Assembly: GCA_018819225.1 (NCBI GenBank)
Contig: JAHJQN010000001.1
Coordinates: forward strand, 1-64,000
From: Candidatus Micrarchaeota archaeon
GTDB lineage: Archaea > Micrarchaeota > Micrarchaeia > Norongarragalinales > SBBD01
Direction: 5' to 3'
DNA: 64,000 nt
The notes under the pieces are model-generated. The model saw nothing but the letters and a program-made list of their open reading frames with translations, ran no database searches and was not told where the DNA came from. Shown here piece by piece: positions 32,496 through 36,362 of this stretch. A program made the translations under genes and the position numbers. Within the stretch, counting starts at the first letter, position 1. The number at the start of each line of letters is the position of its first letter.

Positions 32496-32675
32496 AAATA
32501 TCACCTGGCCCTTCTCTTGAGGCTTTGCCTCTAAAATGGTATTTGCCCATAAATCCAGTTGGATGGCCACAAATTCGACATGACTACTCAAGTAACGCCA
32601 AATAGTGTGCTCAACGCATTTCACGGTATACTCGCGGGTAATGCTTTTATTATCAGTTAATCACATTAGGCGATC

Positions 32676-33689
32676 ATGGATCAGATCACAGGCTTTGATT
32701 CAAAAGAATATCACGCTGGCCGCATTGGACATTTCTTCGCGCCAATAGGTATTGGAGTATCGGTTTCAAACTATGAGACGTTTAAAACAGAATATTCTCG
32801 GCTTTGGCGGGATATTCTTGATGACCGAGGATTAGAATATCGGCGAAAAGTGTATTCTGCTAGGGATTTATTAGTATTATTCCCGCAAGAAAAATATAGT
32901 TTAGAAGAAGATTTTCTTGAAGGCATTCGTAGAAATATTATACACACTACATTCTATTTTACTCAACTACCAAACTCAAAACGGGTATACTCGCGAGGGT
33001 GGTTAAAGAACCAGCCTGCAAGCGAATTTATGCAAAGGGGTCTCAATCAGTACCCTTATTGGTGTGCGTGGAAACACCACCAATCAGAAAGTAGCCCCAG
33101 TCATTCTCCAATCGCTTTTCTTGATGAGTTTGCTGGAGAAGAAACAACTGCTTGGAACACATTATGCCATTCAAGTCCGCGAATATTTTATCGCGGGGAC
33201 AATTCAAATCCTTTGATTTCTACCGCTGATGTACTATTGGATTTTCTAGATGGGAAGCTCCGATTGCGAAGGTTGACGGACAACACAATTGAAGCTGAAC
33301 TTTCCTCCGCTGGCCTTCACGGAAATTCAGAATATATCGGTGTTCCCGACCTGCGGTATATTACTCCGATTTCTAGAAGAATAATTGATAAAGCGCCTTT
33401 TCGAGCACGCCCTACGTACTTTTTGCTATTCGAAGAGAGGCCAAGTTTAATTAATCGAAAAGAGTGGGAACAATCGCGACTTTATTCGAGAATGATGGAC
33501 TTTGCGATAAAAGAAGCGTTTGAGAATAACGGTTGTGTAAAATTTTATGATTGGATAAACGATTTTAAATTCTTGAATAACAGCGACGTGTTTATATGGA
33601 GTGGAGAAAAAGGAAGACAAGTTGTGAAAGGAATCGCAGAGCCAAATGGAGCAAAAGACATCTACTTCTCTAATCAAGAAGGCATATAA
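32676..33689 (+). CDS. Cargo gene: predicted RNase H-fold nuclease (DUF3800/RNase HII-like)
   Basis: N-terminal ITGFDS strand, central AFLDEF, and RGD..NPLISTAD helix. The ORF is secure; the fold is inferred. Confidence 0.55.
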   Translation: MDQITGFDSKEYHAGRIGHFFAPIGIGVSVSNYETFKTEYSRLWRDILDDRGLEYRRKVYSARDLLVLFPQEKYSLEEDFLEGIRRNIIHTTFYFTQLPNSKRVYSRGWLKNQPASEFMQRGLNQYPYWCAWKHHQSESSPSHSPIAFLDEFAGEETTAWNTLCHSSPRIFYRGDNSNPLISTADVLLDFLDGKLRLRRLTDNTIEAELSSAGLHGNSEYIGVPDLRYITPISRRIIDKAPFRARPTYFLLFEERPSLINRKEWEQSRLYSRMMDFAIKEAFENNGCVKFYDWINDFKFLNNSDVFIWSGEKGRQVVKGIAEPNGAKDIYFSNQEGI

Positions 33690-33763
33690 AAAATCAGAAC
33701 GTTATAATATAATGGCGACTGGTTTTAGCCAGCCAAGAAAAACCCCGGTCGGGGCAATTCTCA
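33688..33763 (-). ncRNA. Candidate ~75-nt structured RNA
   Basis: TATAAATA (33792-33785) upstream; two hairpins, improved by G-U pairs on the minus strand; ends in T6. Confidence 0.45.
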
Positions 33764-33837
33764 AAAAAGTTCTTCCAGAACATGTATTTATAGCTTTGCT
33801 AATATCTCGGTGCAGCACCTGTCGCATTACAAGCGCC

Positions 33838-34518
33838 TTAGGTGGAAGTTGGTTCTTCAAGCTTCTTTTTATAATTCTCAAGGAAGCTAATAAGGAGATC
33901 TACATTCTCTTTGGATTCTTCTAGTTCCAGCTTACCTTTTTTTCCATAAAACAGCTTGACAAAGCCTTCTTCATTGGCGTTTACATTTTCAACTTCACTC
34001 ATCAATGGTTGGGTACTGACGGGTGTTTGGTGGCCAAGGTATTGCTTTTGCATACTACTATTTCGAGTAGCATCTATATAAACTTTTCGTATATTCTCGC
34101 AATGTTTCTTTATAGTTTCTTGGTGCACGCCAGTAATTTGCTGTAAAGCTATTTCAAATTGAACGGTATCGGGCTCAATTCCTTGTGGAAAATAACTAAA
34201 TAAGTCCTTATAGAGCGATATATTGAAAAGCAGTTCTCGAACAGCTTCCTGGTATTTCAATGGATCGGCCTCATAGGCGAGTTTTCGAGATAAATCGGTA
34301 GTTTGGTAGCCATTTGCCCTTCCAGTCACTAAGCCATACCTGCGAAGGTCCGCAATTTTAACATAGAATGCTCCACTGGTAGCGCTATGTCCAAGCGCCT
34401 TTGCAAAGGAAGCTTTTGGGCCTTCTTTACCTATAAGTCCCTTTTCGAGGGTTTTTGCTGCGTCAACCGCTTCCTCTAGAGAAAGGTTGGGGAGTTCGTA
34501 TTTACCTAGCTTGAGCAT
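33838..34518 (-). CDS. Cargo gene: winged-helix-like DNA-binding protein
   Basis: FAKALGHSATSGAF..KIADLRRYGLV...TTDL resembles an HTH plus wing. Confidence 0.55.
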   Translation of the reverse strand: MLKLGKYELPNLSLEEAVDAAKTLEKGLIGKEGPKASFAKALGHSATSGAFYVKIADLRRYGLVTGRANGYQTTDLSRKLAYEADPLKYQEAVRELLFNISLYKDLFSYFPQGIEPDTVQFEIALQQITGVHQETIKKHCENIRKVYIDATRNSSMQKQYLGHQTPVSTQPLMSEVENVNANEEGFVKLFYGKKGKLELEESKENVDLLISFLENYKKKLEEPTST

Positions 34519-34639
34519 ATTACCACCGAAAACATATCGCAGTTCATCTTTATAATCTTATCGTTTTTCCATCGTTCTTAACTGATATAGCCGCAAAGCT
34601 TAAAAACTTAAAGCCCTTACTTGGTTCAGATGGTTTTCG

Positions 34640-34768
34640 AGAGCTTGGGAGAGAAACAGGTTTGGACGCCTTCCTCTCCCCTGCCCTTCGCCATCAGAGG
34701 CGATCCCATGAGAAGACATTGGGGCACCCTTGTTGGGTCTAACAACGGGGGGTAAGTCCCCTTACAAC
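34640..34768 (-). ncRNA. Candidate ~130-nt multi-stem RNA
   Basis: Back-to-back helices with a multibranch junction; TTTTATAA (34797-34790) lies ~25 nt upstream of the first stem. Confidence 0.5.
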
Positions 34769-34815
34769 TTCAAGTATTGGATTAGGACATTATAAAACCT
34801 ACGGCTCTGTGGCGT

Positions 34816-35001
34816 TCACCTTTTTTTCTCGATTTCCTTTACGATGACCTTAACCCGCTTTCCAACATGAGGGGTCAATTTCGGATCTCGAATGTTAATC
34901 GTGCCGTAGATGTATTCCTTTTCTCCTCCCTTAAGTTTTTTTTTGTCCTTTGTTGAATGGATGGTAACTTCACATTCGGCAAGCAGCCTCATGTGAACCA
35001 T
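34816..35001 (-). CDS. Small transposon-encoded DUF2080/AbrB-like protein
   Basis: 61 aa, basic; P....HVGKRVKVIV; divergent from the transposase. Confidence 0.6.
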   Translation of the reverse strand: MVHMRLLAECEVTIHSTKDKKKLKGGEKEYIYGTINIRDPKLTPHVGKRVKVIVKEIEKKR

Positions 35002-35052
35002 TCTATACAGAAACCTTTTAATGCTTTTCTATACAGAATATTCTATATAGAA
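35001..35052. promoter_or_regulatory. Divergent promoter with three 12-bp palindromic operator-like sites TTCTATA(C/T)AGAA
   Basis: Copies at 35001-35012, 35027-35038 and 35041-35052 around TTTTAA. Confidence 0.75.
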
Positions 35053-35054
35053 AA

Positions 35055-36287
35055 GTGAGTATGATGAACGAGGAAGAATTACCAATGTGCAAATACTGCA
35101 ATTCGGTCAAAGTAATCAAGTGGGGGATTCGCTCCCTGCAGGATGGCGGCAAAGTGCAGACTTACTTTTGCGGAAATTGTCGCCGCAAGTTCACGGTAGC
35201 TCTTGATGAAAAGCTTTCCACTCAGCAAGCGCTTACTGAGGGATTGATCCCTGAGGCAATCCTAGAGCAGATATTTATTGCTCCCGACGGTCAGATTCCT
35301 CCTCTACCGATCGAAAATTATGGGCAGAAGTGGCCTGCGTACAACCAAGCGCAAACGCAGGAGAAGCTGCTGTTCATGGAATTGCTTGAAGACCTCGCCT
35401 CCTTGATTCCTGAAAATGAAGAGCGTAGGCGTGGAAGACCTTCTCCTTGCATGCGCGACATGCTTTACGCCTGCGTAATAAAAGTCTACGAAGGGTTGTC
35501 TTACCGCAGGGCGCATTCGGATATTGATATTGCCCGTAGTCGTGGCTACCTGCCAAAGACGCCGCACTACAACACAATTAGCAAATTCCTCCGAAAACCC
35601 GAGATGGCTCCGTTGCTTACCGCGCTAGTACGCATTTCAGCCATGCCGCTTTCTGGTTTCGAGGACACGATAGCAGTAGACGGTTCGGGCCTTTCCTCGG
35701 CGTTCTATTCGCGTTGGCTGGACTACCGTTTCGGTAAGAACGCACGGATAAGGGATTGGCTGAAGATTCATATCGCAGTAGGCGTTAAGTCGGGAATTGT
35801 TACGGCTATCAAGGTTACTGACGGCAAAGCCAGTGATTCTCCGCAATTCCCTGCCTTGGTTCAGGAAACTGCAGAAGGTTTTAGCGTGGAAACGGTTTGC
35901 GCTGACAAAGGATACAGTTCCCGAAACAATTTGCAGGTGGCTTGGGACCTCGGCATTGCTCCCTTCATTGACTTCAAGTCTAGCACTACAGGTAAGAAGC
36001 TAGGCAGCATAGCATGGCGGAAGATGTTCCACTACTATCAATACAACCGCGAGCAGTTTATGGCGGTTTATCATCAGCGTTCAAATGTCGAGAGCGCATT
36101 TTCCTCCCTCAAACGCAAATTCAATGGAAAACTATTCTCTAAAACCGAAGCAGCACAAGTAAACGAGGCCCTTGCAAAGATCCTTTGCCACAACATCGTA
36201 GTGCTCATCCACGAGTCCTTTGAAAACAATGTTCCAATCGATATCCAAGCGGCTGCCCACAAATTACCACTGCTGACTACAAAATAA
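35055..36287 (+). CDS. DDE transposase (IS5/IS4 superfamily) with N-terminal Zn ribbon
   Basis: CxxC...CxxC; WPAYNQ; VDGSG; WLKIH; ADKGY; YHQRSNVESAFSSLKR. Confidence 0.92.
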   Translation: MSMMNEEELPMCKYCNSVKVIKWGIRSLQDGGKVQTYFCGNCRRKFTVALDEKLSTQQALTEGLIPEAILEQIFIAPDGQIPPLPIENYGQKWPAYNQAQTQEKLLFMELLEDLASLIPENEERRRGRPSPCMRDMLYACVIKVYEGLSYRRAHSDIDIARSRGYLPKTPHYNTISKFLRKPEMAPLLTALVRISAMPLSGFEDTIAVDGSGLSSAFYSRWLDYRFGKNARIRDWLKIHIAVGVKSGIVTAIKVTDGKASDSPQFPALVQETAEGFSVETVCADKGYSSRNNLQVAWDLGIAPFIDFKSSTTGKKLGSIAWRKMFHYYQYNREQFMAVYHQRSNVESAFSSLKRKFNGKLFSKTEAAQVNEALAKILCHNIVVLIHESFENNVPIDIQAAAHKLPLLTTK

Positions 36288-36362
36288 CGATTATAGAGGC
36301 AAAGCCTTCTCTTGAAGAAAGTATTTATTAAACATTTGTAGGCTCAAAAAAAAGAGCGCAAA

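Follow-up and report, generated by a model that had tools for sequence, protein, structure and literature searches.

The window analysed here is a stretch of 64,000 nucleotides (nt), positions 1 to 64,000 of contig JAHJQN010000001.1 from a Candidatus Micrarchaeota archaeon (assembly GCA_018819225.1), whose genome comprises 1.37 Mb in 8 contigs. A 3.8-kb transposon in this window carries P0002, an open reading frame (ORF) of 226 amino acids (aa) with an N-terminal winged helix-turn-helix (wHTH) domain, and a 297-nt gap separates it from an ORF of 61 aa. Most of this gap is occupied by a folded stretch, which is a real, conserved element and, judging by the comparisons given below, most likely a previously undescribed orphan RNA family linked to the P0002 family. 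The element, its helices and the neighbouring gene are located as follows.

34636..34770, minus strand: conserved structured RNA core, 135 nt with 37 modelled pairs (covariance model R1, pair counts, permutation, RNAalifold)
34765-34761/34756-34752, minus strand: helix A, loop GGGA
34749-34741/34734-34727, minus strand: helix B
34726-34723/34685-34682, minus strand: closing stem
34722-34717/34710-34706, minus strand: helix C1, loop UCUUCU
34703-34699/34692-34688, minus strand: helix C2
34680-34671/34656-34647, minus strand: helix D
34657..34670, minus strand: apical loop of helix D, with the invariant GCGUCCAAA at 34669-34661, identical in the relatives L054 and L067/L068
33838..34518, minus strand: P0002, 226 aa, N-terminal winged-helix domain (HMMER, AlphaFold2, Foldseek)

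The stems proposed in an initial annotation of this DNA are all present where it had placed them: GGGAGAG (34647-34653) pairs with CTCTCCC (34674-34680), TGCCC (34682-34686) with GGGCA (34722-34726), together with TCGCC/GGCGA and CCCATG/CATTGGG, CCCTTGTT (34727-34734) with AACAACGGG (34741-34749), and GTAAG (34752-34756) with CTTAC (34761-34765) around a loop that reads GGGA on the minus strand. The predicted closing stem UGCC/GGCA, the basis of what had been called a multibranch, is invariant in the comparisons. The minus-strand TTTTATAA at 34797-34790 and the 41-codon plus-strand ORF starting at ATG 34630 were also found as described. The label GC-rich holds relative to the transposon cargo (54% versus 32-49% per 150-nt window) and fails relative to the genome, whose contigs lie at 49-52% around a mean of about 51%, which the element merely matches.

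The evidence for conservation comes from L054, L055 and L056, metagenome contigs from JGI and ENA that encode P0005, a P0002 homologue of 49% identity, and that are identical to each other over the element. DNA of this group comes from two JGI samples and one ENA sample, and a third JGI sample lists the same gene order; the samples are JGI 3300033402, 3300034091 and 3300035696 and ENA ERZ27256877. The homologue was matched with R1, a covariance model made from the window sequence only, its structure having been fixed before any relative was seen; the match covers the model at full length on the strand of the wHTH gene (L054:2765-2897, 84.4 bits, E 2.7e-22). The L054 group is a mirror image of the window order, with a DDE transposase, a divergent small ORF, a gap of ~230-260 nt and the P0002 homologue, and no clear terminal inverted repeats were found for the transposon in L054. 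The gene table of a further contig, encoding P0155 (JGI 3300075153), gives the same gene order with a 57-aa ORF followed by a 247-nt gap, which probably holds another homologue of the element; in the table of the P0006 contig (ENA ERZ27247683), the gap is 332 nt.

The degree of conservation differs sharply between the parts of the module. Window and L054 are 75% identical over the element and likewise over the 117-nt spacer to the ATG, whereas the coding sequences of P0002 and P0005 are 64% identical overall and 39% identical at third codon positions, the transposases share 38.5% protein identity, and the small upstream ORFs (61 aa in the window, 58 aa in L054) are unrelated at 20% identity. 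No part of the module is thus better conserved than the RNA region, which goes with the wHTH gene and not with the transposase; by this comparison, the element is under purifying selection.

Within the element, 37 substitutions separate the window from L054, and 34 of the 37 predicted pairs are retained in L054. When these 37 substitutions were placed at random, 24.3 +/- 2.5 pairs stayed canonical, and the best of 20,000 trials kept 33 (P < 5e-5). Standard pairs account for 97.3% of cells across the 37 modelled pairs of the two sequences. Four pairs have changed on both sides, namely a G-C to A-U exchange in helix A, another in helix C2 and two in helix D, against 0-1 double changes in slid controls, and six pairs carry a one-sided change via G-U. 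Additionally, RNAalifold applied to an independent MAFFT alignment predicts 34 pairs, none of them broken in either sequence, and the loops GGGA, UCUUCU and GCGUCCAAA are all kept in L054. The pairs are therefore preserved among related transposons, at a depth of 2-3 sequences, and it is this survival of the structure through 37 substitutions that bears out the earlier proposal of a discrete structured non-coding RNA that lies on the minus strand, has a TATA box to itself and is linked to the wHTH gene.

Coding capacity is absent from the element. Two 1-nt indels shift every frame between window and L054, and the L054 equivalent of ATG 34630 is followed by GCT TGA, that is, by a stop two codons on, which together exclude a conserved ORF on either strand. 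The initial annotation had also considered a type I toxin-antitoxin arrangement with the 41-codon plus-strand ORF as a partner; this suggestion does not hold, since the ORF is not hydrophobic and is disrupted in L054 by the early stop and the indels. An antitoxin role in general fared no better, with no tandem repeats detected by TRF in 34401-34900 and no toxin family identified.

The functional strand is, with good though incomplete confidence, the minus strand of the window, as far as the pairing pattern indicates. Canonical pairs in window and L054 amount to 37+34 = 71/74 on the minus strand and 36+29 = 65/74 on the plus strand, a deficit that arises because six minus-strand G-U pairs turn into A-C mismatches. 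The L054 copy folds at -71.2 kcal/mol (z -7.1) in the direction of the wHTH gene and at -56.4 kcal/mol (z -4.3) on the opposite strand, as scored against mononucleotide shuffles. Furthermore, the conserved tetraloop GGGA is readable as GNRA on the minus strand only, and it is for this strand that window and L054 both have a TATA box at promoter distance from helix A.

A reduced relative lies in L067/L068, two contigs that are identical here and in which a P0002-family gene is found beside an IS6-type transposase. In the 455-nt gap, on the strand divergent from the gene, the TATA box TTATAATAA is followed after ~27-32 nt by UUGUAAGG, whose window counterpart, GUUGUAAGG, stands at an equal distance from its TATA box. 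The 9-bp stem that comes next is wholly unlike that of the window in sequence, and its loop carries GCGUCCAAAAC, including GCGUCCAAA; helix D is fully covaried in L067, and the RNA folds with z = -4.4. In the genome of the window, the background rate is ~8e-6 per position for the loop 9-mer and for the 8-mer alike, which makes their joint occurrence by chance very unlikely (~1e-6 for both motifs so arranged, estimated from background rates for an arrangement found after the fact). R2, a covariance model of the two full-length sequences, gives the L067 RNA no score. Read from these shared motifs, the relative lends support to the loop motif, to the helix D that bears it and to the start region, and shows that the RNA can sit in either orientation relative to the wHTH gene.

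The flanks of the structure contain the signals expected of two transcription units.

34790..34797, minus strand: TATA box TTTTATAA, with GG before it, ~25 nt ahead of the first stem; predicted start near 34767
34602..34606, minus strand: first T5 run after the structure, a possible archaeal terminator that would give a transcript of ~165 nt
34591..34609, no strand assigned: spacer block of highest conservation, reading CCGCAAAGCTTAAAAACTT on the plus strand; probably an operator or an upstream element of the wHTH promoter
34548..34556, minus strand: proximal TATA box, ATTATAAAG on the minus strand, ~31 nt ahead of the P0002 ATG, kept in L054, L057 and L006
34527-34522, minus strand: Shine-Dalgarno-like GGTGGT of P0002, conserved

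The box TTTTATAA, the one strong signal in the window sequence by itself, is a rare motif enriched at promoters; it occurs at 42 sites in 1.37 Mb, 23 of which lie outside long ORFs and mostly 6-85 nt ahead of a gene start or tRNA; with its GG context, GGTTTTATAA, it occurs three times in the genome, one occurrence being the promoter of tRNA-Leu. Its L054 equivalent, ATTTAAAA, falls inside the last codons of the unrelated small ORF, and the box stands 23-25 nt ahead of helix A in window and L054 alike. At the position of the T5 run, L054 has a T4; in L057, which has no co-directional RNA upstream, the T run is not kept. Within the spacer, CCGCAAAGCTTAAAA is identical at 15/15 positions between window and L054, and AAGCTTT(G)CGG recurs in L057, where a tRNA-like gene replaces the element. 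The blocks common to window, L054 and L057 are ATCTGA.CCAA, AAGCTTT(G)CGG, the proximal TATA box and the GGTGRT motif; this shared promoter-proximal spacer indicates that P0002 has its own promoter region, with the RNA slot just beyond it.

Six further intergenic TTTTATAA boxes have no ORF of at least 100 aa starting within ~100 nt downstream, and these may mark other unannotated RNA genes or small-protein genes.

C5:87128(-), C7:66504(+), C8:11804(+), C2:219295(+), C2:120231(-) and C3:91265(+), all on G000 contigs: TTTTATAA boxes of this kind

The slot filled by the element is held by a different kind of RNA gene at other loci. In six of the ~10 loci inspected, a tRNA-like gene lies 100-150 nt upstream of the P0002-family gene and divergent from it, far above the ~2% chance estimated for a tRNA in such a gap.

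L046:1290-1366(-), L047:2071-2157(+), L048:1258-1335(-), L057:838-911(-), L061:2298-2373(-) and L065:2274-2350(-): tRNA-like genes

In all six, the acceptor and T arms are regular and the D arm is regular or nearly so, and the anticodon arm is irregular, with a stem mismatch or bulge in five of the six. That of L065 has only a G-U pair and an 8-nt loop, from which ARAGORN reads the four-letter anticodon UCCC. Run without introns, ARAGORN could assign no amino acid to 3/6 of these genes. Like these sister genes, the element has a TATA box of its own, neighbours a DDE transposase and fills the slot 100-150 nt upstream, and the GUCCAAA in the loop of helix D resembles the GUUCAAA of their T loops, a likeness of seven letters by sequence alone. 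It differs from them in having no cloverleaf and no acceptor, D or T arms, and in lying on the opposite strand relative to the gene. By eye, a further tRNA-like gene can be made out at L063:1395-1530, between an IS6-type transposase and a P0002-family gene; it has the acceptor halves GCTGGCGTG/CACGCCAGC, the T arm GGGGTTCAAATCCCC and a long internal insertion, and was missed by ARAGORN and Rfam.

The P0002 family is large and unannotated. A HMMER search with P0002 retrieved 506 cluster representatives at E <= 1e-3, the closest being P0005 (49% identity), P0006 and P0007, and P0002 matches no Pfam family. An AlphaFold2 model based on a 60-sequence alignment reached a pLDDT of 89.8 (a single-sequence model, with a pLDDT of 36, was of no use) and shows a winged helix at the N-terminus, a helical part after it and a small beta/alpha unit at the C-terminus. 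Weak wHTH matches were obtained to Csa3 (E 0.024) and, with Foldseek against the PDB, to MarR, MntR and O-methyltransferase domains. In our literature search, no description of the RNA of the element or of the P0002 protein family was found, nor any paper mentioning DUF5343.

At most readable loci, the P0002-family gene lies divergently beside a DDE transposase, which is of the IS5 type in the window, L054, L061, L065, G368 and G121 and of the IS6 type in L063 and L067. N6/N4 DNA methyltransferase genes often accompany the family (L061, L065, L067 and, by its gene table, the P0006 contig), and restriction-enzyme domains occur near it, with RE_BsaWI in L061 and a weak Mrr_cat in L065. In L061, L065 and L067, these methyltransferase and restriction genes lie just past the transposase; on the P0006 contig, the methyltransferase directly follows the P0002-family gene and no transposase is listed. 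Such neighbours suggest restriction-modification cargo or defence islands. The contig L006 stops 63 nt upstream of its P0002 homologue P0004 (53% identical); L006:1650-1842 is the 3' end of a 23S rRNA gene, so that this copy adjoins an rRNA operon, with no visible transposase.

The case from the window sequence by itself is weak. The fold z-score of a 146-nt segment is -1.77 on the minus and -0.95 on the plus strand, so that the dense folding noted initially is real and its stability alone is not beyond chance; the 129-nt core gives z = -1.93 and the 167-nt putative transcript z = -1.48. In a GC-corrected scan of the 64-kb window, the four best 150-nt windows of the region reach z -2.1 to -2.5, and many coding windows outscore them. 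No Rfam 15 family reaches its gathering threshold at the element, and a permissive search of 34400-35000 returned as its best match mir-185 (E 0.12, 22 bits versus a threshold of 60), a chance match. The sole Rfam match in the window at gathering threshold is an unrelated tRNA at 31-140; it contains an intron, scores 64.9 bits and was missed by ARAGORN at default settings. Once introns are allowed, ARAGORN reports many tRNAs in this genome that are interrupted by introns of 20-436 nt, in some cases at unusual places; by these many introns and its 1.37-Mb genome, the host is a small archaeon.

The element is single-copy, as no second copy was found by blastn in its own genome, and blastn gave no match in 60 relatives, phages or plasmids. 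R1 had no match in 100 relatives or 31 transposase loci, and R2 had none in 150 phylum genomes or the other P0002-family loci, the phylum searches with covariance models having covered up to 150 genomes each in overlapping sets. Pattern scans returned only chance matches, as judged by alignment and model, from metagenome and genome collections, and none from a viral collection. It is thus the pair-preserving substitutions of the relatives, not stability, that lift the observation above chance.

Taken together, the data somewhat favour a gene for a small non-coding RNA that lies on the minus strand, has a promoter of its own, is tied functionally to the wHTH protein and can be replaced by tRNA-like genes. 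Its RNA would start near 34767, comprise the core 34770-34636 and probably end at the T5 run at 34606-34602, giving a length of ~135-165 nt, and it would fold into a row of helices, A with its GGGA tetraloop, B, the branched C1/C2 and the long D, which would present the invariant GCGUCCAAA loop. Functionally, the RNA would belong with the downstream P0002-family wHTH gene and not with the transposase; RNA and wHTH gene would move jointly as cargo of a DDE transposon, the RNA filling the slot that in most other family members is held by a tRNA-like gene with an irregular anticodon arm. The most likely mechanism would be a protein-RNA pair, in which the wHTH protein either attaches to the RNA, most obviously at the GCGUCCAAA loop, or regulates the two transcription units from the AAGCTT-containing block that is conserved between them. 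That it is transcribed, where its ends lie, which protein is its partner and what it does are inferences, the last two from linkage only.

Several points weigh against this interpretation. The folding z-scores of the window copy are unremarkable; the alignment behind the pair counts and the permutation was itself fitted by the covariance model; and, with only two full-length distinct sequences and one partial relative, the covariation is shallow. The T5/T4 terminator is weak, so that read-through into P0002 is possible. One rival explanation is a cis-acting 5' leader of the P0002 mRNA, transcribed from the distal TATA box (34797), whose fold controls termination at the T run or translation. 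Such a leader had been among the initial suggestions and is still a live rival, though we consider it unlikely. In both full-length cases, P0002 directly follows the element in the same direction, the 117-nt spacer matches the structure in conservation (75%), the T5/T4 run could serve as an attenuator, and the conserved GGTGGT/GGTGAT implies a leadered mRNA, for which the proximal TATA box would provide only ~6-9 nt. However, that proximal TATA box is conserved as the gene's own, also in L057, which lacks the element, and in L006, which is cut short upstream, where the gene must be expressed without such a leader; the related RNA of L067 is on the strand opposite to the gene and cannot be its leader; and other family members have separate, divergent tRNA-like genes in the slot.

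Orientation is an argument for a plus-strand RNA, since the tRNA-like genes and the L067 RNA are all divergent from the wHTH gene and the RNA of the element, as we read it, is co-directional. A plus-strand RNA would have its promoter in the AAAGC-TTAAAAA box at 34596-34606, in which a TATA-like TTAAAAA and an AAAGC element stand at a usable distance, and would point away from P0002; it could run antisense through the 61-aa gene in the direction of the transposase and regulate both. In its favour, CCGCAAAGCTTAAAA is perfectly conserved, a T7 run lies at 34823-34829, helix B of the window copy pairs better on the plus strand, where alone it forms 9 contiguous pairs, and the RNAalifold consensus energies are near-equal (-40.5 for minus and -38.2 for plus, merely 2.3 kcal/mol worse). 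We nevertheless regard it as improbable: the plus strand has the six A-C mismatches and 65 rather than 71 of 74 canonical pairs, the L054 copy loses 15 kcal/mol of stability on it, the minus strand is the one that agrees, in three loci, with the GNRA loop and with the 5' UUGUAAGG behind a TATA box, and the AAGCTTT(G)CGG of L057 lies ~60 nt from a tRNA-like gene that has its own TATA box, and so is not the promoter of that gene. That the conserved entity is DNA, its inverted repeats serving as binding sites or cruciforms for the wHTH protein, a small regulator or the transposase, would agree with the intergenic regulatory setting and the predicted DNA binding of the wHTH protein, and Watson-Crick covariation by itself cannot tell DNA from RNA hairpins; but the one-sided changes pass through G-U on one strand only, as expected of RNA and not of DNA, five different hairpins with the conserved loops GGGA, UCUUCU and GCGUCCAAA are unlike repeated operator sites, and TATA boxes flank the stretch at promoter distance, which makes this explanation highly improbable. 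Least credible of all is a non-functional spacer or decayed gene fragment that folds by chance. The weak z-scores, the lack of an Rfam match, of a covariance-model homologue in up to 150 phylum genomes and of blastn matches in 60 relatives, phages and plasmids would all suit it, but it leaves unaccounted for the 75% identity to L054 beside 39% at near-saturated neighbouring synonymous sites and pairs preserved at P < 5e-5.

Returning to the small RNA gene coupled to the wHTH protein, a broader and more tentative extension, which we doubt more than we believe, is that the P0002 family supplies the protein of a protein-RNA module of mobile elements that has gone unrecognised. Every family gene would be accompanied by its own structured RNA, usually a tRNA-like one whose anticodon arm is deliberately abnormal, and here and in L054 a non-tRNA RNA bearing the T-loop-like GUCCAAA. 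If so, a P0002-family protein would recognise a shared T-loop-like feature and thereby control the element or interfere with the tRNA biology of the host.

The transposon that carries the element is delimited by the following features.

32512..36315, no strand assigned: whole transposon, 3.8 kb (inverted repeats and target duplication)
32521 and 36306: terminal inverted repeats starting GGCTTTGCCTCTA
32512-32520 and 36307-36315: 9-bp target duplications TTCTCTTGA
35055..36287, plus strand: IS5-family DDE transposase with an N-terminal zinc finger (Pfam DDE_Tnp_1, NCBIfam IS5)
34816..35001, minus strand: 61-aa ORF upstream of the RNA, outside the conserved unit

For the 61-aa ORF (34816..35001), no homologue was found. 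The divergent spacer between it and the transposase (35001-35055) is filled by three copies of TTCTATA(C/T)AGAA, which look like an operator array. A second transposase copy, 61% identical, lies at G000:C1:186312-187517, and the divergent small ORF there is an unrelated one of 52 aa. A DUF8203-like neighbour was considered as the partner of the RNA and dismissed, its closest relative, L039, having neither P0002 nor the element downstream. Parallel in layout to the transposon of the window is a 4-kb transposon at L051:5120-9145 (G368 contig C25), which lies between inverted repeats GGCTTTGTTGAATAAAT, starting GGCTTTG, and holds a P0002-family gene, a tRNA-like gene, a 46-aa ORF, an IS5 transposase and two further ORFs. 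Cargo-carrying insertion sequences as such are already a known concept (PMC7986276).

Several established RNA classes were considered and set aside. For a tRNA, the Rfam model gave nothing at E <= 10 at the element, ARAGORN reported none there with introns allowed or not, and a manual search of the element for acceptor or T-arm pairing found none. A missed 5S gene was dismissed, the housekeeping 5S rRNA being present elsewhere in the genome. Archaeal C/D box small RNAs (sRNAs) carry a C box RUGAUGA and a D box CUGA that form a kink-turn; the loop of helix C2 reads CUGAUGG in the window but CGAAUGG in L054, internal C'/D' boxes are absent, and the sequence is base-paired and not guide-like. An archaeal H/ACA sRNA was likewise rejected, as by eye no ACA follows any helix and helix D is followed by CCCAAGC in the window and CCCGCC in L054. 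A type III toxin-antitoxin system was rejected on the lack of TRF repeats in 34401-34900 and on the P0002 model, which shows a wHTH and a helical domain. A transposon guide RNA of the omega or bridge type was dismissed, the transposase being an IS5-type DDE enzyme and the RNA being 75% identical between window and L054 versus 38.5% for the transposase; moreover, a Pfam search found no TnpB, IscB or IS110 gene.

To our knowledge, hardly any non-coding RNA has been defined by experiment in small DPANN-type archaea, and the cargo-carrying insertion sequences that we know of have been catalogued by their protein genes only. The present finding offers a concrete candidate RNA family whose structure is defined, whose start is predicted and whose loop is invariant. 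Attention is also drawn to an unannotated protein family of ~500 representatives, the genes of which lie, at the inspected loci, nearly always between a transposase and a small RNA gene; the hosts are small archaea, and the associated DDE transposases belong to at least two insertion-sequence families.

Structured non-coding RNAs within insertion sequences, beside the genes of these, are familiar as omega RNA (TnpB/IscB), bridge RNA (IS110) and RNA-OUT (IS10). Omega and bridge RNAs are tied to a specific recombinase or nuclease, and RNA-OUT is antisense to the start of the transposase. Unlike omega and bridge RNAs, the RNA of the element follows the wHTH gene across IS5- and IS6-type transposases that are 38% identical or unrelated. 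With the ToxI RNA of type III systems, it shares an arrangement on a mobile element in which a small structured RNA, followed by a terminator (here a putative one), directly precedes a protein gene of the same direction; unlike ToxI, it is without tandem repeats, and P0002 has a wHTH fold rather than that of a ToxN-like endoribonuclease. Structured RNAs that have no known function and recur beside one protein family, in either orientation, include the motifs DUF3800-I to -XI, drum and skipping-rope (PMC5737381), and DUF3800 genes in particular are accompanied by eleven unrelated RNA folds in either orientation (Weinberg et al. 2017, PMC5737381). In the same manner, the P0002 family is accompanied by the RNA of the element, by its reduced relative or by tRNA-like genes, and the two hallmarks of such orphan motifs are seen here: the RNA recurs beside one protein family in the window, the L054 group and L067/L068 with different transposases, and its structure is supported by covariation, with 34/37 pairs kept and 4 double changes, 2-3 sequences deep. 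It departs from the DUF3800 motifs in its wHTH partner without a Pfam family, its archaeal DDE transposon setting and its three distinct sequences. If the pairing of protein and RNA is functional, it would be a further case, like the still-unexplained DUF3800 RNAs, of unrelated folds serving one protein family, and one would then have to ask why tRNA look-alikes whose anticodon arms are damaged are carried by transposons. In kind, gene-associated orphan RNA motifs of the DUF3800 type come closest among known systems.

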